Both the position numbers and the translations under genes were made by a program. The notes under the pieces were generated by a model. The model made no database searches and was not told the origin of the DNA. It worked only from the letters and a program-made list of their open reading frames with translations. Of a stretch of DNA of 64,000 nt, positions 222 to 50,300 are shown piece by piece. The stretch spans positions 4,340,001 through 4,404,000 of the forward strand of contig CM082590.2 of the NCBI GenBank assembly GCA_040954595.2. The letters run 5' to 3'. The stretch is from Balanoglossus misakiensis. Lineage: Eukaryota; Animalia; Hemichordata. The number at the start of each line of letters is the position of its first letter. The stretch's first letter is position 1.

Positions 222-3200
222 CCAATTCTTCAATTTCAATGTGTGTCAATTTTCTGCTGTGGGAATACTTGTTGTGGCAGTTTGCAAACTCCGTGAACAG
301 TGTTTGGTGTTTGTGTACTATTTCCCGGGCTTTTGGGAGCAACTCTGGGCATACTTGCTCAGTCACATTAACAACACTGTTGCATAGTAGATTCACATTT
401 TGTGGCTGAAAAATAGGCAGTCCAATCATTAATCTTTTCATTCACAGGGCAAGTATAATGTTTGTTTTTTTCACTATGAATTATGCCTGTATTTCAAGAC
501 TGTAACTGATTAACTATATCAAATACTAAACACTTACATTTAACTAAAATCAAAGAATGTTATAAATGTTCTGTGAATTAAAATTTCATTTGATTAATGT
601 ATTTATTAATTCAACCTTCGGTCACTCACCAACTAGAAAAATATTGTTAAACATCATATCCAACCTAAAAATAAAAAAAAAACTAACAGAAAAATGAAAA
701 ATAAAGATAAAATGTCCAAGGGAACTTGGCTATATATCAACTTTCAGAACAATTTATTACACAATTAGGGCAAACAAACTTCAACAACTTCATGCATGGC
801 AATTAAGTAACCATAACAATTATTCTTACACAGACCTTGCAGCATCGGTTTACATGATTGCCTATGAATGACTGACTATGGTAGGCTTGCAAATAGACAT
901 TGATAGAAGCAAGTGCTACTTCAAGTCCCCTATGCAAGTATCCAGCTTGACGGGGAAGCTTTTTCTGCAACGTTACAATTTCTGCAGCCTAAAAGTTAAA
1001 CACACCCAATGATTACATTCAAATGAAAAATTAGTCATGTTATACCTGAAAAGAAGACAAATCACATTTTTTTATAAATCAGTACCAAATATGATAATGC
1101 ATTCACCTTTTTATCTGCAATATCAGAGAGTTTCTTTCTTTTACGTTCCATATGTTTTACTTGTCCAAGTGTTGGTGGCCAGTCCTCATCATCACTATCA
1201 TCATCACTAGTATCAGTGAAGGCAGCTTCAATGTGGGATGTCAGTAAATCATACTCAACATGTATTTCATTAATCTCTGAATTGAGGCGAGATATCTTCG
1301 AAATGTGACTGACATATTCATCAAAGTGGGCAGGTTTCATGACTGGCACATCTATTTCCTCCCCCGCCCCCACTAAACGAGTGAAGATTTCGGCATCAAG
1401 TAGATGACAAGAATTCTGCAGGAGACGAAAGAGCCTCTGAAATATGCCCAGGGAGATGTGCAAAACTGGAATCGAAACCTATGAGAGAAATTAAGCATAA
1501 CACATTAATTACGACTTCTTGTTTTTATCTGAAATGAAGATAGAGAAAAATGAAATTGATACATCTATGAAGAACATACCCTACACAGTGGAATTCTAAA
1601 CATTTGATCCCTGACGCAATTGTAATACTCTTTAGCTTGAGTAAGGACCTTCCCTGCACTGACAAAATTATTGTGTGCATCTCTGATTGACTCTAGTGTT
1701 CTTGGTGGAATATCCGGCCGCTCTTCTGGTGGTAGCTTTGCTTGCTCTTTTGTGGTCAGACACCACAGGCAATAGTATCGTCCTGTTGATGAAACAAGGA
1801 AAAAAGACTGCCGACACATTCTATTAAAAAAAATGACATGCAAATATTTAGAAACATGTTACAATCAAAAGAATCAGCATGCAGCACATACCACTTGGAC
1901 CAGACAATCCGTACATCTTCACCAGAAATTCATAGTCACCTGCAAGCCAAACAAGAACTTGTGCATCTCTGTGGACAAAAAAATAAATACATAAAAACAA
2001 ATGAGTATCAATGTTACCTTTCTACCTTATTTTCTATCTGTCTGTCCCCTCATTTTACGTCCCAGGCTTTTCTTTCTGCCCCCGTCTCTTTGTTTCACTT
2101 TGATCTGTTGTCAGTGTATCCAATTGTGTTCTATTTTAATTTCAGTCTCTTTGTGTCTGTCTTCCTTCAGTTCCATTTGTCTGTTGTGTCAGTCTCTCTC
2201 TTTTTGCTAACAGAGATACATGTACTATGATTAATGCTTACTTCCACCTTAGACCATTTAGTGAGTCAACTTGCCCACTGTTTAACTTCATGGCAGTGTT
2301 TAGGTTGGTCAATTTATCCGGAGCTTCAAAAACACTCCAACATACAGTGTTGTTGATGCTGTTGAGGTGATCCACATTCATTATCTCAAATGCCCATTTC
2401 ATGGAACCACCACCATGGTCACCTCCAATCTTTACCCAGACTTCAGAAGATGGAATAAGACCATCATGCCAGGTCAGTTTCTGTAGTCTAAAGAGAGAAA
2501 AACTGGCTCAACCCTTAAATCAAAACCATGCAGCTTTACCAAGGATGTACCTCCAGGCGATACATGTGACCTTACATATTACAATGAAAAAAAATTAAGG
2601 TGTGCTAATGCATGTTTTCCTATTCAACAAGAAAAATTTGTGAAAACTCACCACAGTGATAAGGAGATAGAAATACAAGTCTTAAAAGGCAAGCTGCTAT
2701 TGTACAAAGCCAGCCAGTTATGAAACACACAATCAACTATCTATAAAGTCAATAATCAGTAAAACCAAACAAATCTTACCTGTCTAGGGTATCAAGTCTA
2801 CCTATTACTGTTTCAACAAGATTAGATACAGCTACACATGGTGCCAGCCGTATTTCACTAAGTTTACCACTACCCGTACCATTTACTGTAAATGCGAAGG
2901 GTAGGTTCTTCATTTGGAGCTGAATCTCGAGTGACTTCATTCTCTCACGGTCTTTGTTTTCTCCTTCGAGTCGAATATTCCACATTCTTAGCCATCTGCA
3001 TTTGAAATGAAACTTCATATTTGATGAAACCTACAATCAGTGACCTAAGTGATTAATGTAGCACAGCTAGCTGACAGTTTAAGAAGTTTGAAATTTAACA
3101 ACATAAAACCTCATTCTTTTAAAGCATAGAGATTATAATAAAATGTGATAATTTTTAGTTAATCATGCAGAATATCTCAGACAGCTATTGTAATTGCTAA

Positions 3201-4938
3201 TAGGTATATATGATATTGTTGTTAAAACATCAATAAAACATGACCATTATTGCATAAAGAACAGATAGAAATGAAAGCTGCGAGCAGCATTGTCGGGCCC
3301 AAGCGCTGATCTCGAATTATATATGCACAGTATGAATGAGAAGAAACAGAATTTTCTATCGGGTGTATTATCTCATGACATAACAAGGACTTACCTTCTT
3401 ATTTTCCGCATGGTTGACCAGGTGACCCCAACATCACTCTTTAAGAGAAGTCCAGCACCAGGTGGAATATCTGGACTGAGGCCGAGAGAAGATAGCAGGG
3501 ATTCTTTTTCCTCCTTCTTCATCCTTTGAATTTCATTTCCTGTCTGAATGTGTGCTGATTTACCACCACCGCTTACTTGGTGCCTCACTTCAGATAAGCA
3601 TTTTGATCTTAAGACCAGAGTTTGCTTTGAACACTCAGAACTTTCTTTCCTTGGCTTCCGAATTTTGGACAGCATAATTGGCTGCAAGTACACAAAATAT
3701 CTTAAGTTTCTACAAGTATCGTCTACGCATCAATTTAAGTTATATTACACTGATGTAGCAGTACGGTTATAACTAACAAAATCAATAATTGTTCCCCCTA
3801 GTCAAATCAAAAGTAAATACTCAAGGGTGAATTATTTTTAAGACAAGAATAAAGGAAGAAGTATACTCACTTGACCACCTGTTTTGAATTTAATTAAACC
3901 ACTTGATTCAAATTCCAGCTTCTTCTTGACAATAGTTGTGGCGAGTTGTTCAAACATTGGCAGAGTGTGGATATCGGCTGATGTCTGCAGTAACGTTTTA
4001 GCGGCTTGAACAGGGGTTACTTCAGGTTTGCCAATCCCTTCATTTATTTGTGATTGTTGGGGACTGGGATTATCAATACTGACCTGTCCCTTGTTGACAC
4101 GCATGTTGAAGGGGCATGGTGAGGCATAATTATGTTCCTTGGCGATAGTTTTGAAGGCACATTGATTTGTGTGAGAGCAAAGGTCTTGTAGTGGCACAAC
4201 TTCTGAACAACCAGCATTTGCAAAGTCACACACAATATTTAGAGACGACAGCATATTTGACAATACTAATGGGACACTGACAATATCACCTGGCATAATA
4301 CGTAGGCGACAGATGGGGCATGTGGTTGATTCTTCAAACCACTTACATAAACAAGTAGAACAAAAAACATGGGGCCCACTACACAGAAGTTGAACTGGCT
4401 CGTCAACAACATCTCGGCAAACTGGACATTCAAAATCTTGACTCGCAGAGGAAAAGCGTGACCTTGACAAGTTTAATGCAGACCTTAGCTTCTTGCCAGC
4501 TTTCTGCTGTACAGCAAGGATAATGTTTTCTGATTGTATATGTCCTTGGTCTCCATCAAGTTTTTTGGTTTGTGTAATTGGAGGTCTTCCCCGGTTTTTT
4601 GCTGCTTTCCGCTTTCGTCCACTTTTGCAAAGAGTACACACACTGCATTCACCAATTCTCGGATGTTTTTTCCAACCAGTTAACTGTACCCCATGATTGT
4701 ACTGTTTACCTGTTTCTTTTGCCTTTGTAATAGATGTTATAAGCCGCTTGCAGTTACTACAGAAATGGGTTGGGTGAATGCCAGGGTCATCCGTTGAAAT
4801 ATCTATTCCAAAACATTCACCTAAAGCGTCTCCAAAATTTGCGCACAGAAATGGCTTCTCTGCAAATTTACGGCTGCAAATCCAACATCTATTCAGCAAA
4901 ATGTTATTGTGGAACTCGAGAGATTTCCGCCCGGTCAT
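222..4938 (-). CDS. RAG1L: RAG1-like / Transib-superfamily DDE transposase, multi-exon, 3' end outside the window
   Basis: Exons spliced by hand (GT-AG, phases compatible, no internal stops): 4938-3871, 3681-3395, 2995-2780, 2487-2242, 1968-1892, 1782-1580, 1478-1107, 988-836, 405-222; about 935 aa. Motifs: CWIC...GIDISTDDPGIHPTHFCSNC (RAG1 CND-like); C3HC4 RING CPVC..CSGPHVFCSTC..CPIC; ZnA CDFANAGC..H; KIGGDHGGGS (D600-like); LAGDYEFL..MYGLSGPSGRYYCLWC (D708 plus CxxC); PVLHISLG (RAG1 LHCDIG-like); FIGNH. Confidence 0.85.
3271..3390 (+). mobile_element. 5' fragment of a Helentron-associated (HINE/DINE-1-like) element in a RAG1L intron
   Basis: aaagctgcgagcagcattgtcgggcccaagc is nearly identical to the 5' end of the element at 34173 (aaagctgcaagcagcattgtccgggcccaagc); looser similarity continues about 100 bp. 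Confidence 0.7.
3871..4938 (-). CDS. RAG1L: First coding exon of the RAG1-like gene: N-terminal Cys/His domain, RING finger and ZnA
   Basis: Lies in ORF 3838..5010; first ATG at 4938 (MTGRKSLEFH); donor GTGAGT follows ...KTGGQ at 3870. Confidence 0.85.
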
Positions 4939-5559
4939 CGTACTGGCTGCAGCACCCGACAAATGTGCAGACGACAACGTAGTTCGATCAAATTTGGCGC
5001 CAGTGTACACGTAAACAATACAGTAACCATGGGCACGGTCAGCTTAAGGGGTCATCGAAGCATCGAACCACACAACACATGCCGTTCAAAAAAAAAACCC
5101 AAAGCAAGGAAAAAACACCCCGACAAAATCATCACACTCAAAACACAAAATATTCGACAACGAACACATAAAAATCGGTTTGATTAAAATATAATTCGAT
5201 TTTCGATGTTATCTTAGCTGTAAATTACAGTTCACAAAAACGGGATTCGATGCTGTTCACTCGCCATTGTTTACATGTCGATTGCAAACGTACCTGCGTC
5301 ATGATCCAAATGTCTTCCAAATCACGCGGCAAGATCCATATAAACTCCAAAATATTACAGTTTATGCGATAAAAAAGCATATTTCTCGAGTACGAACTCG
5401 CAAAAATATCGGAAACGGCTATATTCAGTGACGTTTTTCACTGATGGCCATGCATTCGCAGGGCGCGCACATGTTGATCTCGCAAAGTCTCGCCATATCA
5501 CGCAATGGAACGTGAAGAAAATGGCTGTTGTTTTGTTATTTATTTCCTCCAACTAAGTA

Positions 5560-5594
5560 GGGCCTGCCGCTATGGCTAAAACGCTTGTGAGGCA
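5560..5594 (-). other. Candidate transposon terminus (5'-CACAAGCG...) of the RAG1L element, with putative 5 bp TSD half-site AGGCA
   Basis: Unique sequence ends in ...acgcttGTG exactly at 5589, where the satellite starts mid-monomer (aggcatatgtgcataag). RAG/Transib ends begin with CAC. Confidence 0.4.
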
Positions 5595-8500
5595 TATGTG
5601 CATAAGAAAGTTTTCCACTATAGACTCTGTAGATCGAGAGATAGTTCTAAAATTTCCATGGTTGCTTCCAAACACAGCCTCATTTGTTTACAAAACTCTG
5701 TTGTGATGCGCAGAACACATATATAGGCCTATGCGCATAAGAACGTTTTCCACCAGACTCTGTAGATCGACGGATAGCTGTAAAATTTCCGTGTTTGCTT
5801 CCAAACAGCCTCGTTTATTTACGGAATTCTGTGTTGAGGCACAGAACACATAGATAGGCATTTGTACATAAGAAAGTTTTCCACTATAGACTCTGTAGAT
5901 CGAGAGATAGTTCTAAAATTTTCATGGTTGCTTCCAAACACAGCCTCGTTTGTTTACAAAATTCTGTTGTGATGCGCAGAACACATATATAGGCCTATGC
6001 GCATAAGAACGTTTTCCACTAGACTCTGTAGATCGACGGATAGTTGTAAAATTTCCATGGTTGCTTCCAAACAGCCTCGTTTCTTTACCGATTTCTGTTG
6101 TGAGGCGCAGAACACATGATAGGCCTATGCGCATTAGAAATTTTTCCACTGGACTCTGTAGATCGAGAGATAGTTATAAAATTTCCATGGTTGCTTCCAA
6201 ACACTGCCTCGTTTGTTTTCAACATTTTGTTGTGATGCGCAGAACACATAGATAGGCCTATGCGCATAAGAACGTTTTCCACTAGACTCTGTAGATCGAC
6301 GGATAGTTGTAAAATTCCCATGGTTGCTTCCAAACAGCCTCGTTTATTTACCGAATTTTGTTGTGAGGCGCAGAACACATGATAGGCCTATGCGCATAAG
6401 ACATTTTTCCACTAGACTCTGTAGATCGACGGATAGTTCTAAAATTTCCATGGTTGCTTCCAAACAGCCTCGTTTATTTACCGAATTCTGTTGTGAGGCG
6501 CAGAACACGTAATATTCCTATGCGCATAAGAAAGTTTTCCACCAGACTCTGTAGATCGACGGATAGTTCTAAAATTTCCATGGTTGCTTCAAAACACAGC
6601 CTCGTTTGTTTACAAAACTCTGTTGTGATGCGCAGAACACATATATAGGCCTATGCGCAAAAGAACGTTTTCCACTAGACTCTGTAGATCGACGGATAGC
6701 TGTAAAATTTCCATGTTTGCTTCCAAACAGCCTCGTTTATTTACGGAATTCTGTTGTGATGCGCATAACACATAGATAGGCCTATGCGCATAAGAAACTT
6801 TTCAACTTTAGATCAACGGATAGTTCTAAAATTTCCATGGTTGTTTCCAAACTGCCTCGTTTATTTACCGAATTCTGTTGTGAGGCGCAGAACACATAGA
6901 TAGGCCTATGCGCATATGAACGTTTTCCACTATACTCTGTAGATCGAGAGATAGTTCTAAAATTTCCATGTTTGCTTCCAAACAGCCTCGTTTATTTACG
7001 GAATTCTGTTTTGAGGCGCAGAACACATAGATAGGCATATGTGCATAAGAAAGTTTTCCACTATAGACTCTGTAGATCGAGAGATAGTTCTAAAATTTCC
7101 ATGGTTGCTTCCAAACACAGCCTCGTTTGTTTACAAAATTCTGTTGTGATGCGCAGAACACATATATAGGCCTATGCGCATAAGAACGTTTTCCACTAGA
7201 CTCTGTAGATCCACGGATAGCTGTAAAATTTCCATGGTTGCTTCCAAACTGCCTCGTTTATTTACCGATTTCGGTTGTGAGGCGCAGAACACATGATAGG
7301 CCTATGCGCATAACACATTTTTCCACTAGACTCTGTAGATCGACGGATAGTTCTAAAATTTCCATGGTTGCTTCCAAACAGCCTCGTTTATTTACCGAAT
7401 TCTGTTGTGAGGCGCAGAACACGTAATAGGCCTATGCGCATTAGAAAGTTTTCCACCAGACTCTGTAGATCGACGGATAGTTCTAAAATTTCCATGGTTG
7501 CTTCCAAACAGCCTCGTTTATTTACCGAATTCTGTTGTGAGGCGCAGAACACGTAATAGGCCTATGCGCATAAGAAACTTTTCAACTTTAGATCAACGGA
7601 TAGTTCTAAAATTTCCATGGTTGCTTACAAACAAAGCCTCGTTTGTTTACAAAATTCTGTTGTGATGCGCAGAACACATAGATAGGCCTATGCGCATATG
7701 AACGTTTTCCACTATACTCTGTTGATCGAGAGATAGTTCTAAAATTTCCATGTTTGCTTCCAAACAGCCTTGTTTATTTACGGAATTCTGTTTTGAGGCG
7801 CAAAACACATAGATAGGCATATGTGCATAAGAAAGTTTTCCACTATAGACTCTGTAGATCGAGAGATAGTTCTAAAATTTCCATGGTTGCTTCCAAACAC
7901 AGCCTCGTTTGTTTACCGATTTCTGTTGTGATGCGCATAACACATAGATAGACCTATGTGCATAAGAACGCTTTCCACTAGACTCTGTAGATCGAGAGAT
8001 AGTTCTAAAATTTCCATGGTTGCTTCCAAACAGCCTCGTTTGTTTACAAAATTCTGTTGTGATGCGCAGAACACATATATAGGCCTATGCGCATAAGAAC
8101 GTTTTCCACCAGACTCTGTAGATCGACGGATAGCTGTAAAATTTCCATGTTTGCTTCCAAACAGCCTCGTTTATTTACGGAATTCTGTGTTGAGGCACAG
8201 AACACATAGATAGGCATTTGTACATAAGAAAGTTTTCCACTAAAGACTCTGTAGATCGAGAGATAGTTCTAAAATTTCCATGGTTGCTTCCAAACACAGC
8301 CTCGTTTGTTTACAAAATTCTGTTGTGATGCGCAGAAAACATATATAGGCCTATGCGCATAAGAACGTTTTCCACTAGACTCTGTAGATCGACGGATAGT
8401 TGTAAAATTTCCATGGTTGCTTCCAAACAGCCTCGTTTCTTTACCGATTTCTGTTGTGAGGCGCAGAACACATGATAGGCCTATGCGCATTAGAAATTTT

Positions 8501-31600: not shown

Positions 31601-34172
31601 TTCTAATGTAATTTTAAAGTTTTGTTTTAAATTTTTCATGAAAAAAATAATCATATCAAGTGACATGTTTAATAGTGAAAAAAACCTGAATGTCACAAAA
31701 TCAACAATCATCTAAAGAGAATAAACACTGATTCCTCTTTTCCATCACACTGTATCAAAAACTCCTACCAAAAGTACAGTATTATTTAAACCACAAATAA
31801 GAAAAATCTCCTTATTATGACTTGTCAGATTATTAGGTGACAAACAGGAATTGGCAGATGCTGGAGGCCGGGAGAAAATCATCCTATCTTATCTGCTCCA
31901 GATCGCTTTGAATATTCTCCTAATCCTGATGTACATGTATCAGATCAATCTTGTATGTTACTAATTGAACAATTTGTTCTTCGGTATAACAGAACCAGTT
32001 GAATACTCAAAGTCATGCAAAGGGTAAGACAATATCTCTTCTCCAGAAAGTCAAGGGTTCTTGAGAATATTCCTTCTACACAGGCAGCTCTAAAAGAACA
32101 TGTGCTATGAGAAACCTAGCAAAGCTATATCAAACCAACAGAATCCCATTGGAAATCAAGTTGGAAAAAGCCCAAGAAAAGAGTCAACCTCAGGAAATCA
32201 GTTGTAAAAAGTAATGCACATGTTCCTGTAGGTGCTTTAGGTCTAGTCTGACAGCAGTGATCTTTGTTACTGTAAAGGAGAATGTCATCAAGATTGCTCT
32301 GATACATGTACATGTGGATTAGGATAATATACAGAGGAATGTATGGAAGCAAGTATGTTTTACAACCCATATTCCTGTTTCTGAGTGTTACAATTGACCA
32401 AAAAGTGCCAATAATGGGAGAAAAGTGTGAATGTCAGTTTCTGGCCGCTATTTTGGGATCCATATTGGAAAATGTCCGCCATGGGTCAATGAATAATTGT
32501 ACCAAATTTCATGCTTTTAACCCAAAGTGCACGATTTTAAAGTTTGAATATCTGTTTCTGGTCACTAGAGGGCTGTGTCATTTTAGATCCATATCAGAAA
32601 ATGGCCGCCATGGGTCAATGCATAAGTGTACCAAGTTTCATGCTTTTAACCCAAATTTCACGATTTTTGGGTTAACTGCCCCACTACAAGGAGAAGTGCA
32701 GACTGAAATGCAGTGATTGTCAATGTTGTAAATGTATGTGTTGTTGTTTCTGTAAAATGTCATGTTTTTGTAGAATTGATGTTTAACAACTTAGCTACTT
32801 TGCATGTCAAGCAAGGAGTACACTCAGTCATGTGTAGTATGGTAGTTTAAGCTTAGCTTCATTGAGATGTCATGTCTGGAGAACATTCACTGAGTTTGAA
32901 TATTTGCTTGTAGTTTTTAGTCATCCAAGAACTTAGTCTGAGGTTGCCAACCTGTCTATCAGATGTGAAGTTAATACCTTAAATAATTACAATGACATTG
33001 TTCATTTCCCCTGTATGTGTAAAAATCACATGTAATTTATTCAAAAGCTGACTACAAATCACATAGTACAATGCTCATTCAAAACAAGATATAATTTTTA
33101 AGTTTTAAGTTATAAGGTTTATTTAGTAGAGCATGTTTTGGACATTACATTATATTTCCAGTTTTGATTGGAAAAACTGCATGAAAATACGTGTTCACCG
33201 AGTTGCAATGACAGTATTACAGTACATCCATATCATTCCTAATTTTATGTGAGAAAACACTGTTGTTGGTATAAGTCAGAAACTGACATGAAACTGAATA
33301 CATATAACTCTTCTTTACACCAGTAATTTCTCACAATATTTTAATGTGACTATACCATTGTTATTTGTATTTGATGTACATGTTCCCAATTGTGAAACAA
33401 TAACACTTAGTATACAGTAAATATGAACAGGTTGTTTGGTTTATAGAGGTGATAAGTTTTAATGTACAGGTTTAACTCTTTTACAGTGTGTCTAAAGGCA
33501 AAGGATTCCGAAAACTGTTTTGTATAGACAGTGTTCTAAGGTTTTGACAGGGTTTGATTTAGACACAGGTTCTTCTGTTCATGACAGGCCCATAAAACTA
33601 TATTCAGTACTAAATTACGGCCTGCCAATGGCATATATGATTCTAGAACATTTTTCTGTATCTTTACTGATCTTTACTGTAGCAACAGTAATCTTTTTTC
33701 AGCATCCAATTGTTTGGAGTACTTAACAAACCTTGCTTTTAGGTTTTCAGACTTTTTCACAGATATTTCATGTGTAAACTTTGGGAATACCTTGTGCTCC
33801 CTGTTAGGCTTTATTGTAAATAAATCCTTTAATTTATACATATTAACACACTTCCTCACATCTTTAGTTGTGTTGCCAGTGGTGGTATGTGGTGTGTATT
33901 GGTACTTGTCTGCTACTTGATCAAAATACAATTTCTCCATTGACTTTTCAAGCGAACCAACAAGTCTTGAGAATCTTGCCATTTGTGTATCATTGTATTG
34001 ATCACGACAGCGCTTCAGATTTTCTGAGACAAAAAATTGAACCAAAATTTACTAAATAAATACTCTAGGTATCATAATTGGCATAATGTAATAAATATGT
34101 TACAACATTCTCACACATTTTTGAGAAAGCAAATAAATCAAATTTCACCAAAGTCATTAATTACAGGAAAAA

Positions 34173-35890
34173 TTAAAGCTGCAAGCAGCATTGTCCGGGC
34201 CCAAGCTCTATTATCTGATCTGGTTATTAGATATGCACATAATTAATGAGTAGAAACATAATGCTGTGTTTTATCCCATGAAATATCAAGGTTATTTCTA
34301 TGTTTGGTGTTGATATAGTGTTAAGTAGGTCAAAGGTCACCCAGAGGTCACCCACAATTTGGGCAGAAAATTTTGACCCATAGTGGTCCATGTCCAACAA
34401 AAACCAGACCTCTAGCCCTTTTGGTTAGCCCGGAATTATGTATGCACATAAATAATGAGTTAAGCAGGTGTCACAGGTGACCCAAAACTTTGGCTTTCAT
34501 TATGGCCCCATACCTCCAAACGCCAAGGCTGTACCTGCTTTGGATGCCGAGATAGGCAAAAGTAGGTCAAAGGTCATCTGAGGTCACCCAAAATTTGGGC
34601 AAGAAAATTTTGACCCATAGTGGTCCATGTCCAACAAAAACCAGACCTCTAGCTCTATTGGTTCGCCTGTAATTAGCTATGCACATAATAAATGAGGTCA
34701 GCAGAGGTCACAGGTGACCCAAAACTTTGGCTTTTCAATATGGCCCCATATCTCCAAATGCCAAGGCTGTACCTGCTTTGGATGCCGAGATATGCAAAAG
34801 TAGGTCAAAGGTCACCCGAGGTCACCCAACATTTGGGCAAAATATTTTGACCCCATACTGGTCCATGTATAACAAAAACAAAACCTCTAGGTCTATTGGT
34901 TCATCTGTAATTAGGTATGCGCATATTTAATGAGGTCACCAGAGGTCAAAGGGGTCATGAAAAGTAGCAAAATTTTTTGATCACATATAAATCCACATAC
35001 ATCAAAAACCAAACTTATAGCCCTATTGGTTAGCCTGGAATTAGATATGCAGAAAAATGATGCGTCAAAAGTAGGTCAAAGGTCATTGCCAAAATTACCA
35101 AAATATTTATAGGTTATTCTTGTCATATGATGATTCATATCCATAAAAAGAATTTCTGTGATATCAATTTTTAGGCTAGAAAAGGAATTTTTACTTTTTA
35201 ATCGTTTTTCACAAAATCCAATATGGCCACCATAATCTTCGACCAATCACATTCCCCTTCGCAAACTTGATAGACATCTGTTTAATGACCACACACACCA
35301 AATCTTGTGACTCGGTTATCGCCCGTTCTGGAGAAGAAGATTTTTGAAGTTTTACTATGGTTTTTCGAAAATCCAATATGGCCGCCATAATCTTCGACCA
35401 ATCACAATGATCTTCGCAAACTTGATAGACATCAGTTAGGTGACCACATACCCCAAACGTCGTGACTCGGTTATCGCCGGTTCTGGAGAAGAAGATTTTT
35501 GAAATTTTGACCAGATTTCAGAAAAACAACTGTAGCAAAAAAACTGCAACATTGACAGCAAAATATCCAATTACAAAAATGATGGGCAGAGGGTATACTA
35601 CCAGCACGCCAAATCTTAACTCGATCTGACTTGTAGTTTCTGAGATCTGAGATTTGCATTTTTTCAGAAAATCCAATATGGCCGCCATGTCATGTGACTA
35701 ATTAAGTATTCACAAGTCACTGCACATCTACTCATTGACCTTGACCACTGTAGCAAGTTTGAGAACTGTACCTGCAGCGGTGTCTGAGATCTAGAGCGCG
35801 AAAGAAGTGAACCAAGAATAAAGAAAGAAAGAAAGAAAAACCCCAACGAAACCAATACGGGCCCAAGCCTGGCTTGGCTTGGGCCCGTAA
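34173..35890 (+). mobile_element. Helentron-associated non-autonomous element (HINE/DINE-1-like) with internal tandem repeats
   Basis: 5' sub-terminal motif cgggcccaagc; ~240 bp units (agtaggtcaaaggtca at ~34324, 34561, 34800, 35070); aaaatccaatatggcc units; (aaga)n tract; 3' hairpin gggcccaagcctggcttggcttgggccc. Confidence 0.75.
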
Positions 35891-38112: not shown

Positions 38113-40326
38113 TCACATATAACATACTCCCCAGTGAATGCAGTTCATGTGATTCCCCCCCCCCCCCCAAAAAAAAATAGGTAGCATAGTACATTGTTTT
38201 CAGTGTGAGTTACATGTCATTGCAACAATATATGGTCCAAGTAATGGCATATTAATACATAAATGATAGAGACTAACCCTCGGTACTGCCACATATACAG
38301 TATTCTCTATCATCCTCATCACCACCATCATTAGCTGTGAACACTTCTTTTATGGACCTGTAGTCTATGATTGGCCAAACCATCAACACAGCATTTGAAG
38401 CTAAAGCCTTCAGGTGATCCACTTTGTCTCCAGGTGCGTTTTCGGGTATTTCGTCAATGTCATCTACCTGTAGAACTTTCATTGCAGCCAAAACTACCAT
38501 AGCTTCAGTTGTGAAATTCAACAAATTATCCACATGATTGATGCAGTCCGTGATCTTTTTCTTCACATTTCGATGGTTAAACACAGTTTTAGATGGAAAA
38601 GTGTACCCTCTTGATCTGCACTTTTTCCAGTGAACAGAAGATCCTGAAATAAAATACATAACAATTCCTCAAATAATTTAGCGAAAACATAAACAGAAAA
38701 ACATTTCAATCCAATGAAACACAGTTTGAATGACATCTAATGGGCTATTCATTGTCCTATCATAGAACATTGAAAGGGTATATGAATAAGGCTTTCCAAC
38801 AAAAGGTACTACATAATTAGATTTATAAATTATTTTTCACTTAAAATGAATATAGTGCAAACAAATCCTGAAAACATTGTGTCAATTTTATTCAAACAAA
38901 ATTGCCAATATTGGAATGAATTCTTCAAATACATGTCATCCATTATTGAAATATCAACCTGTCTTCTTTATTAGTATATGTAGAAATCTTAAAACACTAT
39001 CATTCTTATTAATATGCCCAGAAGATTGGGGTTTTAAGAATCACAGAAATTTATTTTTGAGCTGAGTACTTGATCTACAAGGTTTGATCGTGTTTGAACA
39101 TTTTGAGGTGGTTCATCCAAGCAATAAAACAACCAAACATGTTTTGAAATATAGCAATTTATAATACGTTCTTTTGGTGGTTTGTTTTCTACTTTATGAA
39201 AACTAAACTTCTCCTTGAATCCTTTGCCATAACAAATGATAAGAAAACATTAATATAATCTTTACACACACTAATATTTTAAATGTAGCTATAAAATTAA
39301 AATGTACCACCTGATTTTTTGGCTCAATTTCTCATATTGTCAACACTAACAGCAATATTGTCATTTGTGATAGTTGCATTTTCCTTAACGATATATAGTC
39401 CCATTCGTTTGTACAACTACCAGTGTCGCTAGTACTTAAAAAAACTACATTTCAACACACATCAATCTGTTCTGGCTAATGAAACAAAAACAATATTTAC
39501 GGCCAAAAACGAATATCACTTACAATTTGTCTAATGTTTAAATAAATGCCATTACTACTAAAAGCGAAAACATCACATACGGTGATTCTAATCCTTGAAT
39601 ACATATGTCATTACAAATAAACATGAAAACATCACCTAAAATGAACATTTGCAAAAATGAGGGAATTTCCCTCTGACGACTGAAAACAAACAAATGCCAG
39701 TCGTATGGCAGATTTTGATGATCAAGACTAAAAATAATGATGTACAGCTCTTTGTTGTAAACAATAATTTGGATGACAAAAAATTATTACATTTTGTTTT
39801 AACAAAACAGAAAAACTAACCAAATGATCTATAATGAGCACTGATGTATATTAATTAGTATTTGTTGTGACTTGTAAACTTCACATGCCACTTTCTTTGT
39901 ATTTAACCAATACACTCACTTCATTTGGCCAATCTTGTGATGTTGACATGGCACCATTTTCGTCAGTCCTTTCTTTGCAATTATCCAGTAAACCTACTTT
40001 CATTGGATGCAGCTTAAATGTGTTTCTTTGATCTTGTCGCCTTCAGTTGTGTCATCTCTATCAGCATTTTCTCTGATTTGGCTTTTGGAATATTTTCTTT
40101 GTCAATAATGTTTCTGTGGCTTTATCCGTCAACTTCAAATTCTCTAATTCAACCGTCGTAACATTTTCTGAATGACTTTGTTTGTTTAAGATTTATATCC
40201 TTGGTCTCGTATTGTGTTATCTTCAGTTGTGTCACCTCTACCGATATTTTCTCCAATTCAGCTGTTGAAACATTTTCTGTGTCAATGTTGTTTGTATGGC
40301 ATTATTATTCTTCCACTCCATCATCC

Positions 40327-41520
40327 TTATCTTGACACACCCAGCCTTTTGAACATTTCGTGGATTACACTCTGGGCATCTGGTCTGCTTCTTTCTTCCT
40401 GGTTCAATGCTGACAACAAAGAGGAGAAATTACTCCGATAGAATTTCTCTCCTTCTGTTGACACTGCACTACGGAGTGTACCATCCGCGCTCCTTTTAGA
40501 CCACTCGGATATGACGAACAGTGTCATTGACATCGGTTTGTCTTCCCAACCTTCAACTTCCTTGTACCAGATCCCCAAGATGTCTGCCAAAGCTTTGTAG
40601 TCAAAACCAATGGGTCGTCTGACATCCATTAATATGGCAAACTCTTTGAGGGCATCCTTCAGCACCCACTTGACATCACTTTCATATCCATATTTACGGA
40701 GGAATGTGGTGTCATATCCAGCACAGAGCAAGTCAGTGACAGCTTCTTCTTGACCTATTTGCTCATCATACACTCCACTTCCATTCTGCTCAGCTTCTGT
40801 GATTTTCTGCATTGGGTAGAATCTTACATTCTCTGGGTTGCTGTGAATTCGCAGCGAGTGGGCGCTGAGAATATGGGTGTCGACCTCGATACCCGGACAG
40901 CAGATCTCTATGACGTCATAGATATCATTGGTCACCATTTCCAGTAACTGGTAACATGCCCCTATGTCTTCTCCCTTTTCTGCTCTGACACAGGTGTGGA
41001 TTGCCGTCCATCCATCTGTCATGTACACCAATCCTTCTACGATGCGGCAGACTTTGATACCATTCTTCCATATTCCACTGGGAGGGTAACCCATTTCCTC
41101 AAAATGACGGTAGAGCCTGGTCTGTAGGCGTGGGAACAAACCTGGTGTGAAGCTGTCTGTTTCATCATGGCATTCGATTCTTCTACCAAAATAGTGATGC
41201 TTAGTGGGATCCGATTCCCATTGATTTGCTGGCATTTTATCTTCCAAGAGTCCAGGGATGATGTAAGATTTTGGATTGGACTCATCTTCATGGAGAAGCT
41301 CAAAATGCTTGAGAAGAACCATGACTAAGTTGGTATCACCGTAACCACTGAATACTCGAGCAATTTCTGTCTCGTGATAGAACTTCTGATTTTTCGGCAG
41401 TTTGTCGCTGTATTGAACGAAGATATCAGTTGCCATCAGTCGACCTAAGATTTCTGAACACAACCATTGACCATCAAGAACAATGATATCATCACCAAGT
41501 GGATTCTTGACAAAGATACT
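40327..41520 (-). CDS. Last exon of the Roco gene: COR and death-like domain
   Basis: Real part of ORF 40327..41706 below the acceptor AG at 41521-41522; DAPK-type COR motifs. Confidence 0.88.
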   Translation of the reverse strand, partial: SIFVKNPLGDDIIVLDGQWLCSEILGRLMATDIFVQYSDKLPKNQKFYHETEIARVFSGYGDTNLVMVLLKHFELLHEDESNPKSYIIPGLLEDKMPANQWESDPTKHHYFGRRIECHDETDSFTPGLFPRLQTRLYRHFEEMGYPPSGIWKNGIKVCRIVEGLVYMTDGWTAIHTCVRAEKGEDIGACYQLLEMVTNDIYDVIEICCPGIEVDTHILSAHSLRIHSNPENVRFYPMQKITEAEQNGSGVYDEQIGQEEAVTDLLCAGYDTTFLRKYGYESDVKWVLKDALKEFAILMDVRRPIGFDYKALADILGIWYKEVEGWEDKPMSMTLFVISEWSKRSADGTLRSAVSTEGEKFYRSNFSSLLSALNQEERSRPDAQSVIHEMFKRLGVSR

Positions 41521-41864
41521 CTGCAACAAACACGAAGAATGAAATAAACTTAAGATGGTAACAAAAGTTGATTTAAAGAAAATAGTATATTGATGGATGA
41601 GATGTAAATGGTGGATGAACGAATAAATCAATGAATCAATGAATAATGATGGTTGAAAGGACAGGTAGATGGATGGATGGGTGGATGGATGTATGTATAT
41701 ATGCATTCATGCATTCTCGCATGTATGTATGTATGTACGTACGTATGTATGTATGTATGTATGTATGTATGTATGTATGTATGTATGTATGTACTGTATG
41801 CGTGTATATATGTATGTATGTACTGTATGTGTGTATGTATGTATGTATGAATGTAGTATGTATG

Positions 41865-41898
<34 letters not shown>

Positions 41899-44334
41899 TG
41901 TATGTATGTATGTATGTACGTACGTACGTATGTATGTACTGTATGTGTGTATGTATGTATGTATGTATGTATGTATGTATGTATGTATGTATGTATGTAT
42001 GTATGTATGTACTGTATGTGTGTATGTATGTATGAATGTAGTATGTATGTATGTATGTATGTATGTATGTATGTATGTATGTATGTATGTGATGGTGGGT
42101 GGTGGATGGATTGTTGGATGGGATGGGTCAAAGAGATGGAAGGATTGAGTGATTCATTGATATGTGACTGACTGACTGGATATATGCAATAAATATGTGA
42201 GGTTTAATGACATACAATGATTGGGTGGCCGGATTGGTGGATGAACTATTTGGTGTATATCTTCATTTACCTCGCCAATGCTATCCAGGTAAGATGTAGC
42301 TGTTCTCAGGAAGGGCTCTTTAACCAATGGATCAATTTCCTTTACTTTTTCCACATATGTCTTCCAGTACAGGACAGGGAATTTAAGAAGCTGGTTACGC
42401 CATATTCGCTTCTTGTCGACAATTTTTGCACATAACCTTGGTATTTTTTCTTTCTTCTGTAATGTAATGAAGGAATGGAGAATTTTGATGAGTAGCTATA
42501 TTTTCAAATCATCGATTCAATAAACTCAGCCATGGAAAATGGGACCAAAGACCATTCCTAACATGTCACATGCAATATAAAAGATATATTGCCGTCAACA
42601 TGCCATTACATAATGCTTTTTAATCACTTCTGAACATCTGGAAACTTTCAGTAATCATACCTGTGTTGGTAAGTGTGTATACAACCATCACCAACACCAA
42701 GAAAATGCCCTTAGTATTTCGTGCATTTATATATTATGTTACTACATAACTTGGTTCACTGAGTGAACCTGTGGTAAACAGAAAGGGGATGAAAGTATGA
42801 AGAAATATTTACAGGAAAAACTGCATACAGATGAAGATTTGATTGGAGTGATTAATCTAACCTGGCCAATTGTTGTGAGAAATGTTGGATTGATCACTCC
42901 CATTGAAATAATTGTTTCTGCTGTAGTGTTTTTATCATTTTTGATTTGACAGATATTAAAATCAATATGATATAAAATAGTTATGCATTTATGTTAAACT
43001 CACCTTGAACCCACGTAAGATCACACGTAGTCTGCCCATTGCTTCACTTTGAGAATCATGACAATTTACCAAAACTGTCTCATCCACGATATTCAAATAA
43101 TCGCCAAATTTCTTCTTCAACTCTTTGCGTACCTTTTCTACAACCCATTTGGCTATAATAGAAAACATAAAATAAAAATGGGTTATGGTAATTACGGATG
43201 TACATGCAAAACGTAAACTCGTAGACTGTGTGAACTTATGGGCATGTCACTATTCCTATAACATAGAAAAAAATGGGTATCGGTATTTACCTAGTATTCA
43301 AAGTAGGCATCTTCTGACTAAAAGATTGTAAGTAATTATGTCAGATCTTTTTGAAAAAATACTTATCGTGCATCACCTTATAATGAACTGCTTCTAAAAT
43401 ACCCCACCCATCAAAATGTGTTTGGATGCAGAAACAGATTTGTCTAAATCAATGTTGGTTTTACCATTACAAACTGGATTGTGTGTGAGTTTGTGTGTAC
43501 AAGTGTATTGTTCCAGCATTTGTATGTTGTAACTGCAATCAAACAAATTGACTCACCACTCTCTTGTTGAGATTCATCCAACATATCAGCTCTACTTGCG
43601 ATCAATATCACAGTTGGTTTGGTGTCTTCACTCCGAGACGAAGCATCATCACTCTTTGGGATGCTGCTTATCATGCCTTTGAAGAACTGGGCCCATATGT
43701 TGGTCTGAAAATTATCACAATGATTTAATTACAACCAATCAATCAATCAATTTAATTACAACCAATCAATCAATGTAATTAATTGATTTAAGTGTTGTGG
43801 CACGTTTTATATGTGTTGAGGGTTTTCACCCAAAATATTTTAATTGATTTCACAAATAATATCTACAGAATCATCGCTCCAGGTATGGATTGGTTTCTAT
43901 AGACCAGTCATTTAAGAAAATGCCTAAGTGCGTCGCTACATACTTTGTCATTCACATGTGACCTTTGTTTCCAGTACATTAAGATTGTCTTGGGGATGCA
44001 ATTGGTAGAATATTTCATAATAGTGGCACTGTAATGCCACACATAAACCATACTAAGTTCAGAGCATACAAAAACATGCAAGAAATTATGACAGTCTGTA
44101 TTTGTTAGGCATTGCATCTGGGGACTACTCACCAACCCCCCTCCCCAACCTGTCCTCAAATGACTAGTTCTATATTTGGACATAGTAGGTTAAAAACTAG
44201 ATTTCATTCCGGTGTGTGTGTGTGTTGGTGTTTGTTTGTTTGTGTGTGGCCGTTCTCAAATGACTAGTTCCATATGTGGACAAATATGTAGTAGGTTAAA
44301 TTGGACATACTTTACAGTTTCTATTTCGTTCCGG

Positions 44335-44388
<54 letters not shown>

Positions 44389-47300
44389 GGGTCATGTCTC
44401 ACCTCTTTCAGTGCTTGTTCCAACATCTCTATAGGCTTCTTCAAATGTTTAGGGTCATCTTTCACCATTTCTGTTATTTTAAACAGAAGCATAAACACAG
44501 CATCTTCTGCTCTCAGGAACATGTTGTGTGTCACGTAGTACTCACACTGTCCAGCAAAATCCATGACAATGTATTCTCCAACCTTTGGTATGTCGACAGT
44601 TTTGACATCAATACCAGGTGTCGGTGTGTATCCAGTCTTGTCCGGTGGAGGGGCTTTTTCTGCAGCTCGTCGAGTGACATTCGCTTTCCAGAAGCCCTGT
44701 ATGAAATTGCAGTAAGTGTTTGTGTTGACAGTGACACTGTCACTGATTGGCAAGTAACACTATCATTTAAAGGGACAAAGTCTCTCTCTAGCTGCCCCTT
44801 TTTCCATTAATTATATTTGATACAAGACACTGTTTGTTATTCTACATGTGGATATATAATGAATGAACGTTCAACCACACACAATTTTCATCCCTCTTAT
44901 AGACAGGAGAGTGAAAAAACTCGCCAAAATGAATAATCGTTCTTTACCATTTATTCATTTTGGGCAAGTTTTTACTCTCATATCATACAAACAGGATGGA
45001 AGTTGTGTGTTGTTGATCATTGATTCACTATATATCCACATGTACATTAACATAAACAGTGTCTTGTATCAAACATAATTAATGGAAAAAAGGGCAGCGA
45101 GAGAGAGACTTTGTCCCTTTAAGCAAACTATTTCACCTGGACATCATGATAATGTTTAATAGATTGTAATAAGAATTCCTAGTTTGGTGAAATGTATATG
45201 TACGCTGTATATTACAATATGCAAAATAGGTGAATAAATGAAAAATTTCATAGTATCATTGCAATAGATAAACAACGAACTTGAAACATTGATGAAACCT
45301 TGGAAGTTAAAAACAGTGTGACCATACAATGTTTGACAAAGATACAGGTATACATATGAAAATCATTGTTACCCGTTGCAAAGATTTCACAATGGTTGTC
45401 TTTCCAACACCACCAAATCCACAGACATGAACTCTGCTACTATTTCGCGTGATGCCAGGTTCTCTCATCAAAACATTGAATGCCCTCTTCCTCGGTTCGG
45501 CCTGATGTGAACAAAAAGAACAACAGTAACAGCAAGCGACAGCATTCTCAGAAGACTGGCCAAATATTGACAAATCGACTGTGATATCAAACGAACACTA
45601 CGCTACATTAATGACAAAATATGGCTACGACAGCCTCGTATTTAGTGCACTTAAATGGACAAAATCTCTCTCACTGCCCCTTTCCCATTAATTGTGTTTG
45701 ATACAAGACACTGTTTAGGTTAATGTACATGTGGATATATAGTGAATCAATATTCGACCACACACAACTTCCACCCCGCTTGTAGACACGAGAGTGACAA
45801 ACTCGCCAACATTAATAATTGGTCTCTACAGTTTATTCATTTTGGGGGAGTTTTTACTCTCATATCCTACAAACAGGACGGAAGTTGTGTGTAGTCGAAC
45901 GTTGATTTAAAATATATCCACTTGTAGAATAACATAAACGGTGTCTTGTATCAAACATAATTAATAGAAAATGGCAGTGAGAGAGAAAGACTTTGTCCCT
46001 TTAATTCAAAGAAGCAAGTAGAGTGATAAGTCTGGTGTGTAATGCATATGTCAAAATGCAGCGATTATGAATTGTGGATGAAACACTGAATAAGAACGAT
46101 GATACATGTTAGTATCATTTATTGGTAACAGAAAGTTGAAAGAGTTGAAAGTAACAATAGTATTGTAAGTATTGTCAACAAGTGCACAAGTTCCTATTTA
46201 AATCAAAGTAAGGAGTACAATATTTTAGACCTACCAATTAATGTAAATTAAACGAAATCACATTTAGCAACGGCAACGGTTTCACTTTGAAATTTAAATT
46301 AGAGTGTACAAAGAGGTTAAAACTAATCTCCACTCTCCAAAGTGTTTCTTTCGGTTTCTGTTCTGGAAATGAATAACTTACAAGTAACAGTGTTCCTTTT
46401 GAATATGACAGTTACTTTGTATTTATGGGAAATATTACCTTCAGCAGGGATTTGACTCTTCTGTCGTCTGCAACATCCAGAGGTGTCTTTCCTTCCTGTA
46501 ACGTGGAGAAAAGATTTTAAGCCCATTGCTATGATTTGGTTGAAACTGCTTCATGACGTTTTATATGGACTCTTCACAAATCTAATATTTGCAAAACATG
46601 CCTCTGGTTGGAATTTATTTGAGTATCGGAATGTGACAGTCGGGACAATTTTCATGGTTTTCTAGTGTTAAACTTAAAAGGGGAGTTCTCGTGGCGTTGA
46701 GATTGCGCGCGAGGGTGTCTCCCTTGATTAACACATTTCCCAGAATGCCTCACTATTCTCTGCACATAAAAATGGCTGCTATGGATAATAATTAAGCGAG
46801 TTTCACTGACAGTACAGTTTCAACTACTAGTATAATGGTGACAGTACATGTTTTGTGCGAGAGAGGGTGGTGTCAGAAGGACTGACATGAGACGACATTA
46901 CGAAAGTGATAGTTCGACTTGGAGAGCAAACATGATAATAAAAGCATCATAGCATCAGTAGGAAAGCCACATTCGAGCCGTTTCGATCCCTGATCCAAGT
47001 CGCACCCACAATGCACTGCTGTTGAAGTGGGGCGGCATAACAAAAAAATTCATATCGATTGTGCATTTTGTGATAAAAGCTCAGATGGGTGTTAATGTGT
47101 AATTAACTCCATCGGCCATGTAACGCCGGGAACACACAGACGTGTACGCAGGGCTAGGAACACACATTCCCATACGCACAGACACATACGACACAACGAC
47201 ACAACCCAACACAGAACTCAAGCAATTGCTCCATCGAGACCATGACCGTACTTACATGCAGACTCATTTGAATGTCAATTTCGCCTTGGTTTTATGGCCG

Positions 47301-50300
47301 CCAAGCTGAAAGTTTTTGTTTCAGGGTTTTGACAAATAACATCGGAGTAGGCAAGTGACAGGCAAACATCAGGAAACAGATAATGTTTCATGACACACGG
47401 GGACAGTGGGATTTTCGACATTACCTACACAGTCATAAATTTCGACAACATGTGGTGGGAAAGTATTTGAAATAAAATGTACGCATGACCACAGCAACAC
47501 GTGGCAAAGGCAAGCCAAGTTCTGACATGAACATTGCGATCGTACTGGTGAATTTTACGGCTTCCCAGCAGCCAGCAATCTAGACTTATCAACTGAAGAC
47601 CCATCTCCGAAAAAGTTATTATTTTCAGAAATTTGCACTAAGTTTAATTCCACTTTCCTCATGCAACGGAAGATGTGGAATGTTTTAAAAAATCTATGCT
47701 TTTCACTAGCTTCCGCCCATTTGTATAATACACCCTTTACGGTAACAACAAACTGTACCCGGAAACACCTACACTAGATGATTTCATGTCTTCTTAGAAA
47801 CACAGAGAAAGAAACTGCCCGGTTTAATCCCCCTGAAATTTTACCCATCCTAAATGCAAAATACATAATAATTTATCAAGCCATAGGCCGACCTCATGGC
47901 AAGTTTCTACGGTTATTTAAGCCTTCAATTTGGATTGAGCATTGTTTGAATCGTGAACTGGTAGCCTAGGTCACACTATATAGGGATTACGCGATATACT
48001 CATGTCATCAATGGCAAATTGAGATCTAGCCAATCACAGATTTTCAGTGGGTGGCACACGCGAAAGAAAGAGCGCCACCATAAGTTCTTTAGAACGCCCA
48101 AATACGTCATGTCAGCCATATATGGGCGTATGCAAGTTGGAGGTGACTGTATACCTTTAAGCATGCACTGCTACACACATTCTGAAACATTCATTTGTGA
48201 GATGGCACAACATGTTTTGCCGAAAGTTTTTTTTTTTTTTTTTTTTTTTTGGGGGGGGGGGGGGGGTTAATTAATAGTAGGATACATCCCTGTCCCCCAC
48301 GTAATGGACATGAGAATGCATGATGTGGTGATAGGGCTCTGTCCTTTGAGGGTACATTAACATCACAGGTATTCGTTTACTTGAGATTTATGATACACGC
48401 GTGTGTTGTTTTCATTTGAAGATGCCCTCTGTACAATACCTCAAACTGACAATGATTTAAATATAATAAAAACGTGTCAACTGATGTGTGAGTATAGAAT
48501 AGAATTTGTGTGATTACATTAACTTACATTATCCTGCACATCGATGCTGGCATTGGATTGCAGTAGAAGTTTCACCACGCCATCACGGCCATATAGTGCT
48601 GCATGGTGTAACGGTGACCAACCAATCTGTGGGAATACAACAAAAAGGTGTCACTGAAAATTCCTGACTATAAGCGTTAAATGGAACATGCAATGTTTCA
48701 ATAAGCATGCACTGTGAGACACATTCTGAACATTCATTTGTGAGATGGCACAACATGTTTTGCCGACACTTTTTTTTTCTTTTTTTTTTGGGGGGGGGAT
48801 AAATTAATAGTAGGATACATCCCAGTCCCCCACGTAATGGACATGAATTCATGATGTGGTGATAGGGCTCTGTCCTTTGAGGGTACATTAACATCACAGG
48901 TATTCTTTTATTTAAGATTTATGATACGTGCGTGTGTTGTTTTCATTTGAAGATGCCCTCTATACAATACCCTCAAACTGACAATGATCTAAATATTATA
49001 AAAGCCTAGACAGCAGTTTCATTACCCCTTAAAAGTGCATTGGAATTAGCCAATCAAAGAATGGCAATCATGAATGAAAGGTAAGAAATATGCGGAACCA
49101 CTATTGACATTCAAATGATTATGTTGGACTTCAGCCAGAAAACTTTATTTTAGTCTCGCCAGCCAGACCTCTCTCTCTGTCATTCAACGGCATAGCCACA
49201 CAAAGTGACCGTCAAAGACGGCCTCGCCGCTTGTGGCGCCATTTATGTACCTGTGTGCAGCGTCGACGGATAGCGAGGTCTGGCCAAATGTTTCTTTAGA
49301 GTCAGTTTCATAACGGTAACAGCATGATGACGGTTTATGAACGAATCCCACTTTGTAGATTTTCGGTTGAAAAGTCATCCCAAGTTTGGAGACTTTTCCG
49401 TTGAAAATGACCCTTCTGGGGTGTACATACCCGTACACATTCCTATGGGAGTACCCCCCCCCCCCCCCGCCTGTTGTGCAGGATACTTGGCGCCCCTTTA
49501 ATTGCATGTAGCAATAGTTCATGGTTAGGTCCCTAACTTTCCGGTCAAAAAGTAAACTATTGGTAGATTATTTGTCGAAAAACCTTATTATGAATTTCGA
49601 TATGAACACCCTGATCCCAACCTCTCGAATTACTCGACGTTTTAATAAAATATTGCTTTATAGTGGTATGATATTCAAAAGTGAATTAGTTGGTCTCAAA
49701 AGAGATAAGAATTTAACTTGGCCGCAGGTATAGCCACGGTCCAAAAACTCTCCCTCAAACTCTTTCATACTCTTCATAATCCTATTATGCGTGTCGGTTT
49801 ATTGCACTAGTTTCGTGATTGACATCCCGAAGGTCGTCAACACTACAAAATATAAGTACAGTGTCACCTTTTTGGCCATTCGGGCTATTGGTGAGTGAGC
49901 ATGTAAAGCCACTTACATCATTCTTAGCATTGACGTCAGCTCCATGGTCGATCAACACTTGTGCCACTTCTAGTTTATTTTCCCAGGCTGCAGTATGCAA
50001 TGCTGTGGATTCATCCTGAAATTGACAAATTCATTTGAATTAAAATGAACACAAGCTTTGTTCCAATGTTGGACTTGTAAGGTGACATGGCTATAATTTC
50101 AATGGAATTGATTTTTAACTGTAAGTGTTCACTGTGTTGAGTTAAATGTGTGTAGCATCTATAGTTGTTTCAGACCAAAACACTTTATTGTTTCAGAGAA
50201 CATTTATAACGTGTCCTATAGATTTTTCTAACAAGTGTAACACTGTACAATTCTAATGTAGCGCACTATACATGTTTATGCACACTCATCGGCCCCACAG

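Follow-up and report, generated by a model that had tools for sequence, protein, structure and literature searches.

Near its left edge, a 64,000-nucleotide stretch of the Balanoglossus misakiensis genome (contig CM082590.2, positions 4,340,001 to 4,404,000 of the forward strand; the window) carries a minus-strand gene whose product joins a RAG1-type N-terminus to a divergent transposase core. The question raised by this locus is whether the gene represents a new branch of RAG1-like transposases or belongs to a group already described. An earlier interpretation, made from the nucleotides without database searches (the sequence-only reading), had proposed a separate RAG1-like lineage, still mobile or domesticated, that bears on the origin of the V(D)J recombinase. 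Our analysis indicates, with a probability of about 0.9, that the element adds a new member to the RING-bearing Chapaev group and that no new RAG1 lineage is involved.

To begin with the gene model, splicing of the nine exons, with AG acceptors and GT donors throughout, gave a product of 935 aa with 0 stops, exactly as the sequence-only reading had described. All the motifs that it named were in place. The N-terminal ones started with HPxxFCxxC (aa 55), followed by the RING (171-210) and the ZnA-like CxC/HxxxC (237-260); those of the core were GGDHG (545), GDYEF (616), CLWC (636), LHISLG (705) and GNH (866). For exon 8, the boundary at 836 gave an alignment free of gaps to P0151, a RefSeq protein of Ptychodera flava; the alternative 988-830 was in frame as well, and 988-832 was out of frame. 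The window protein was 34% identical to P0151 over 968 columns and 36% identical to a second P. flava protein, P0157, over 965 columns, and it was 37% identical to a Glandiceps protein over 775 columns. Since the product can be aligned end to end with the P. flava proteins, the nine-exon model is not a chance splice. The coordinates are given in Table 1.

Table 1. Features of the element and its insertion site, in window coordinates
Feature	Position	Strand	Remarks
Exon 1	4938-3871	minus	aa 1-356; Chapa/NZD zinc finger, C3HC4 RING (about 4428-4309), ZnA/C2H2-like finger (about 4230-4159)
Exon 2	3681-3395	minus	aa 357-452; basic and helical, in the place held by the NBD in RAG1
Exon 3	2995-2780	minus	aa 452-524; pre-RNase H region; in-frame GT-AG, alignable to P0151
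Exon 4	2487-2242	minus	aa 524-606; DUF1280 core; first catalytic Asp candidate D547 (2420-2418)
Exon 5	1968-1892	minus	aa 606-632; second catalytic Asp candidate D617 (1937-1935)
Exon 6	1782-1580	minus	aa 632-699; C(2)C motif C636/C639
Exon 7	1478-1107	minus	aa 700-823; LHISLG (H706); long helical insert begins
Exon 8	988-836	minus	aa 824-874; F-x-G-N-H motif; donor 835 or 829
Exon 9	405-222	minus	aa 875-935; donor GTAAGT at 221; gene runs past the window's left edge
Internal box TACTTAGT	5552-5559	minus	31-38 counted from the tip ("long" type); box of relatives at 21 or 31; putative role
5' terminus CAC-N4-GTTT (CACAAGCGTTT)	5579-5589	minus	starts where the satellite stops
Presumed left copy of target-site duplication, GCCT	5590-5593	minus	last bases of the satellite; presumed from the 4-bp duplications of relatives L019 and L030
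133-bp satellite	5590-31500		about 197 copies, 79% matches (Tandem Repeats Finder); abutted by the element

The gene had been called intact, which holds for its visible part. P0151 runs 104 residues beyond the last column aligned to the window protein, and in full-length homologues the motifs KxHxxxxH and G-x3-EQG are located after the point where exon 9 stops. No H-x4-H reading was found at 221-1 of the window. About 100 C-terminal residues, including the H-x4-H and the catalytic Glu, are thus predicted from the homologues to lie left of the window edge. The span 222-4938 was likewise right for the coding exons, and the element itself reaches further, its terminus being located at 5589. Within the window, neither the gene nor its 5' region was found a second time; the occurrence of CACAAGCG at 49228-49235 has a different continuation and is a chance match. 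In intron 2, at about 3297-3389, contigs break and the depth rises about 100-fold at a short high-copy repeat.

The core assigned the element to its family. Exon 4 matched the Pfam family DUF1280 (PF06918) with 41.7 bits against a cut-off of 25, and DUF1280 corresponds to the Chapaev transposases, which were placed in one clade with RAG1 (Majorek et al. 2014, PMC3985635). The same family was present in 17 of 17 long homologues scanned and in 4 of 4 further ones, many of them also having RAG1_imp_bd and RING; the RAG1 core family was listed for none of these 17 and 4 proteins. When exon 4 alone was used as the query, 752 cluster representatives were obtained at E ≤ 0.001. Among the 150 of them listed in detail, the named homologues came from P. 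flava, Glandiceps, Antedon, Branchiostoma floridae and Sycon, the closest relatives were those of hemichordates, and the best identity to database proteins was 34-39%. A tree was built with 25 core segments from this family alone (matches spanning at least 430 residues, with four near-duplicates excluded and neither RAG1 nor Transib included). In it, the window protein grouped with the hemichordate (P. flava, Glandiceps) proteins with a support of 100/99, in agreement with a hemichordate host. A pattern search for relatives in viral contigs gave 41 matches, of which 0 were confirmed. One predicted protein, P0030, combines a DUF1280 core with a sialyltransferase domain and may be a gene-model fusion.

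The catalytic positions and the fold were examined on P0024, a homologue 37% identical to the window protein, whose AlphaFold model had a predicted local distance difference test score (pLDDT) of 85.7. Its D245, the equivalent of D547, was invariant in 34 homologues and lies in strand 237-247 of the model, and the GD at D617 was nearly invariant among homologues and follows strand 306-314. The C(2)C motif and L-H-x-x-L-G were both invariant in alignment A3, and long helices were seen at the insert equivalent to exon 7. The two catalytic Asp candidates and the C(2)C are found in the window protein itself, and the H-x4-H and the Glu in full-length homologues; C(2)C and H(3-4)H are described as motifs held in common (PMC12730594). 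In a structure search with the P0024 model, E ≤ 0.001 was reached by RAG1 and HzTransib and by nothing else. With VIA-align, its core gave Z 18.5-24.0 against RAG1 (best root-mean-square deviation (rmsd) 4.1 over 451), Z 20.7 against BbRAG1L (rmsd 4.2 over 457) and Z 15.6-20.8 against HzTransib (rmsd 3.5 over 401), and the P-element transposase came next with Z 10.5. The predicted core of this homologue thus has the RAG1/Transib fold and not that of another RNase H family, the outcome that would have counted against the sequence-only reading. Together with the match of exon 1 to RAG1, this supports what that reading had said of the protein: a DDE transposase with a RAG1-type N-terminus and a core that is not that of canonical RAG1L. 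In identity, the P0024 core was about equally distant from RAG1, BbRAG1L and HzTransib (11-15%).

The N-terminal region could be compared with RAG1 directly. Exon 1 exceeded the Pfam cut-offs for RAG1_imp_bd (38.7 bits) and zf-RING_2 (32.7 bits), matched residues 141-374 of mouse RAG1 as a single continuous stretch (E 1.7e-14), and matched the NZD structure 21WB (E 2.8e-5); a family profile of 34 sequences matched RAG1 residues 101-383 with E 6.7e-25, whereas its core part gave only sub-threshold stretches against RAG1 714-741 and 872-1006, in which the C(2)C, the H-x4-H and the Glu helix were aligned. The ligands of the Chapa/NZD finger (H10; H92, C98, C101) follow a type-I-like pattern, as judged by eye. 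Type I was defined in bioRxiv 10.64898/2026.01.24.700457, in which Chapa is treated as an NZD homologue and Chapaev systems are described as lacking experimental validation. This arrangement has been reported before. According to Kapitonov & Koonin 2015 (PMC4411706), a RING follows Chapa in two Chapaev subgroups, and seven families (Chapaev-1/2_BF, -1/2_NV and -4/6/7_HM) are aligned there with RAG1 through the RING and C2H2 fingers, in RAG1 order. As judged by eye, the Chapa layout of the window protein is that of the published alignment, except that W19 stands in place of a conserved R. With a DUF1280 core behind a Chapa, RING and C2H2 arrangement published in 2015, the locus does not represent a separate, undescribed RAG1-like lineage. 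Two sequence searches added little: five published Chapa motifs had 0 exact matches in the 162 proteins compared, and when longer proteins were sought with exon 1 by a word-indexed method, 0 of 1995 candidates passed, which is a weak negative. A search of papers for motif text gave unrelated ones only. The Chapa-RING-ZnA region is likely regulatory and, by analogy with RAG1, may have a putative RING E3 activity.

A B. floridae protein, P0158, linked the window core to a published Chapaev. Its Chapa was identical to that of Chapaev-2_BF at 33 of 67 ungapped residues (counted by eye), and its core was 32% identical to the window core with the same motif wording. Residues of about 190-400 of P0158 consist of a tandem Pro/Val/Cys-rich repeat in place of the RING region.

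The outer boundary of the element was sharp. The sequence CAC-N4-GTTT begins where the satellite stops, and it was the single match to that pattern in 4939-5700; the 11-mer is identical to the 5' end of L019 and the 3' end of L014, two related metagenome loci. When 97 satellite monomers with the preceding motif were compared, none of the 8 commonest continuations (93 monomers) started with CAC. The 133-bp satellite is likely a host sequence that served as the insertion target and is separate from the element. Its 26-kb array showed a very high contig depth, and such depth figures are not copy numbers.

The end pattern was then followed in 73 related metagenome loci, with flanks of at least 300 nt beside the gene end being tested. 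It occurred in 13 of 24 5' flanks and 9 of 22 3' flanks, where about 1.2 and about 1.4 were expected from the background of the window, and matches in the wrong orientation numbered 2 and 1, respectively. After removal of the five loci that had suggested the pattern, it was still present in 9 of 20 5' and 4 of 17 3' flanks. Four distinct complete relatives (L019, L023, L024/L025 and L030) were each 4.4-4.5 kb long. A target-site duplication (TSD) of 4 bp was seen in two of the four (L019 and L030) and a 5-bp TSD in none of them. L024 and L025 had an identity of 99.8% as far as the 3' tip, beyond which they diverged. CAC/GTG termini and 3-4 bp TSDs are reported as hallmarks of Chapaev (Zhang et al. 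2014, PMC4079192), and the same hallmarks are given for Chapaev3 in PMC3014272. The space between gene and ends in complete relatives was 437-572 nt. In the three distinct elements checked, the longest stretches free of stops measured 53-106 codons, so that these three have no room for a RAG2L gene. In L024 (219) and L025 (240) the element stands beside CCCTAA-type repeats, with the left flank shared and the right flanks differing. In L072, at 4518-4628, a unit like the CAC-N4-GTTT end is repeated three times in tandem with 55-bp spacing.

From these observations, the segment between 5589 and the left edge is most probably the 5' portion of a cut-and-paste transposon of the RING-bearing Chapaev group, likely inserted in the 133-bp satellite. 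Its single intron-containing gene would encode a transposase with a RAG1/Transib-type DDE core, the chemistry being that expected from the fold. Cleavage at the CAC tips would fall to the RNase H core, with D547 and D617, a Glu beyond the window edge and a C2C/H-x4-H zinc site, and the basic helical region of exon 2 is the likely binder of the internal box. Synapsis would likely join one short end (box at 21) and one long end (box at 31-32), and insertion would produce a 4-bp TSD; a RAG2-like partner would not be needed.

Three other explanations were weighed against the Chapaev assignment. If a new divergent family of ProtoRAG-like RAG1L elements with its own RING N-terminus were present, with a RAG2L beyond the window, then the single-stretch match of exon 1 to RAG1, the RAG1-like fold of the core, the CAC-starting end and the RAGL-A-like asymmetric ends of the family would all be accounted for. 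The sole transposase matched in the PDB by the core-only profile was also BbRAG1L, at E 0.25. However, RAG1L cores are reported to be more than 30% identical to RAG1 (PMC4411706), and the core of P0024 is 13-15% identical to RAG1 and BbRAG1L and no nearer to them than to HzTransib. The window core matched DUF1280 and no RAG1 core family. The short gene-to-end spaces of the complete relatives and their TSDs of 4 bp, compared with the 5 bp of RAGL and Transib (10.1101/100735), also argue against such a family, which we consider very improbable. A model fused from a stand-alone gene resembling the RAG1 N-terminus and an unrelated neighbouring transposase core would agree with the first description of such N-terminal domains as separate genes (Kapitonov & Jurka 2005, PMC1131882), and the junction of exons 1 and 2 is known here from genomic DNA alone. 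Nevertheless, in many single predicted proteins (P0151, P0157, P0047, P0101, P0148 and others) Chapa, RING and DUF1280 stand together on one chain that aligns across that junction, and these single-chain homologues have already largely refuted the fusion, making it extremely improbable.

The remaining explanation is a Chapaev-derived gene taken over by the host as a RING E3 ligase or nuclease, the domesticated option of the sequence-only reading. Eight introns, clean splice sites and 935 codons without a stop could be expected of such a gene, as could the mild synonymous excess in the comparison with another sample, S1, whose contigs span the gene at 95-99%. Among 40 of the 121 substitutions, 23 coding differences were found, 10 synonymous and 13 non-synonymous (p=0.018 against the site ratio), with no stop codon. 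On the other hand, relatives having both ends also align piecewise, consistent with introns, and S1 has a probable frameshift, a lost zinc ligand and a second, about 89%-identical copy (a piece at 989-1292). Domestication is disfavoured because the window copy ends in an intact, sharp transposon terminus within the satellite, and it appears very unlikely. The differences from S1 are consistent with transposon copies drifting after insertion. The window copy probably inserted recently and has since decayed lightly, and it is probably no domesticated gene.

Several points weigh against the Chapaev transposon interpretation or against parts of it. The 3' exons, the 3' end and the TSD of the window copy fall outside the window, and the link to the Repbase Chapaev cores runs via Pfam DUF1280, the published N-terminal alignment and P0158. 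The modelled core is that of P0024, 37% identical to the window protein, and the gene model of P0024 is without the CxxC stretch. Two of the four complete relatives had no TSD, possibly as collapsed multi-copy contigs, and the strict end pattern was absent from 11 of 24 5' and 13 of 22 3' flanks. Against present activity, S1 lacks one base at 1773 in exon 6 (seen in a single contig alignment), a probable frameshift and the one exonic case among the 10 indels below position 5590 checked (of 12 of the 25 indels), for which a compensating insertion is possible. S1 also carries C244F, by which a zinc ligand is lost. The window copy in turn has W19 where RAG1, RAG1L and RING-bearing Chapaevs have C-R-x-C, and S1 has W19R, the conserved residue. 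The synonymous excess noted above speaks against purely neutral decay. Exon 2 had been labelled NBD-like, and its AlphaFold2 model consisted of helices (pLDDT 85.9). The RAG1 NBD structure 3GNB aligned in register with it (model 9-67 to 391-456), yet with Z 3.2 at rank 17, within noise; Foldseek gave no match for this model at E ≤ 0.001, and the GRPR/K motif of the RAG1 and PflRAG1L-A NBDs was absent from the window protein.

The ends of the relatives showed a further regularity. We examined 22 ends: that of the window, 12 5' ends and 9 3' ends, with the duplicate L025 left out. For L019 and L024 the 5' match pairing with the 3' end was preferred over a second match, and relaxed candidates in L012, L021 and L072 were left out. 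An A[CT]TT start was located at position 22 in 9 of the 22 ends and at 32/33 in 6, and at both positions in no end; shuffled ends gave 0.3 and 0.6, respectively (P=0.0014 for the best two-position window, with the motif chosen from the same 22 ends). Seven ends had it at neither position, L006 being off by one base. In an unsupervised tally over all loci, TTAGT had offsets of 24 (7 matches) and 34 (3) among 20 matches. Several elements in this set belong to one clade, with exon 4 identities of 64-86%. A short end and a long end were paired in three of the four complete relatives (L019, L024 and L023, with the 5' box at 22 and the 3' box at 32/33); L030 had a box at the 3' end only. The 5' end of the window element is of the long type. 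In a FastTree of short segments, L001 and L006 grouped with the window (0.97); the 3' ends of these two are of the short type (positions 22 and 21), which suggests a flipped orientation in this subgroup. The 3' end of the element, read inward from its tip, would begin with CACAAGCGTT and have its box at 21-22, as a short type.

The short and long ends of these Chapaev relatives resemble 12/23 signals, and judging from the end sequences they may be an early form of the 12/23 rule. The ends of some Transib families are described as RSS12/RSS23-like (PMC1131882), and a 10-bp asymmetry is described for RAGL-A ends (PMC10629977). Our literature searches found no report of a Chapaev with 12/23, asymmetric or heptamer/nonamer ends. 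We tentatively propose, as a possibility that we hold with limited confidence, that RING-type Chapaevs have bipartite ends composed of a CAC tip and a box one helical turn closer at one end, that an NBD-like region reads the box, and that cleavage may need one short and one long end without RAG2. If this is true, the 12/23-type architecture would be older than the split of Chapaev, Transib and RAG, and NZD-RING-ZnA-NBD-core enzymes would form a RAG2-free outgroup for the origin of the 12/23 rule and of the RAG1 N-terminus.

Elsewhere in the window, exons of a Roco protein were found on the minus strand at 40327-41655 and 44256-44759, with COR-B above the cut-off and COR-A and Roc weak. Three near-identical open frames of 194-257 aa with Cys/His motifs, at 53335-55686 (minus), resemble pieces of a further transposase-like gene repeated in tandem; the one scanned had no Pfam match. 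Short frames at 38273-38668 and 33674-34048 (minus) are possibly decayed mobile-element pieces, the first with a weak DUF6589 match (E 0.037). Short tandem arrays with units of 155-362 bp are present at 34323-35508, 51932-52909 and 56056-57096.

Compared with known systems, the element is closest to the RING-bearing Chapaevs of the CMC/CMCT group. Both have Chapa, RING and C2H2 fingers, a DUF1280 core, the C(2)C and a CAC terminus, and the relatives of the window element add the H-x4-H, the Glu motif, 4-bp TSDs and the single-gene layout. It differs from them as a new family in a hemichordate host, with a best database identity of 34-39%, and in the one-turn asymmetric bipartite ends of its relatives, for which our literature searches found no description in Chapaev. 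RAG1 and RAG1L/ProtoRAG (RAGL-A and RAGL-B) share the order of N-terminal modules, the core fold and the CAC tips. They differ in the core (13-15% identity), in the 5-bp TSD and RAG2L as opposed to the 4-bp TSD and lack of RAG2L room in the window's relatives, in the GRPR/K start missing from the NBD-like region of the window protein, and in an A-rich nonamer as opposed to an ACTTAGT-like box. With HzTransib and other Transibs the element has in common the core fold (Z up to 20.8), a single gene and CAC tips, whereas the identity is 11-13% and their TSD is 5 bp. Transib is described as being without Chapa/NZD and RING (PMC4411706; 10.64898/2026.01.24.700457), and membership in this core-only group was rejected, Chapa and RING having been detected in the window protein. 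N-RAG-TP (Panchin & Moroz 2008), a transposon with a RAG1-like N-terminal region that was proposed as its donor (as cited in PMC8374863), is similar to the window element by description only; the Aplysia Chapaevs in the 2015 alignment are shown there without a RING (PMC4411706). Since the element adds one more member to a family already described, the story of RAG origin is unchanged. It is of value as an outgroup, being a type-I Chapa/RING Chapaev that appears to be almost intact in a hemichordate host, with the one-turn end asymmetry of its relatives providing a concrete test of whether 12/23-like synapsis predates Transib and RAG.

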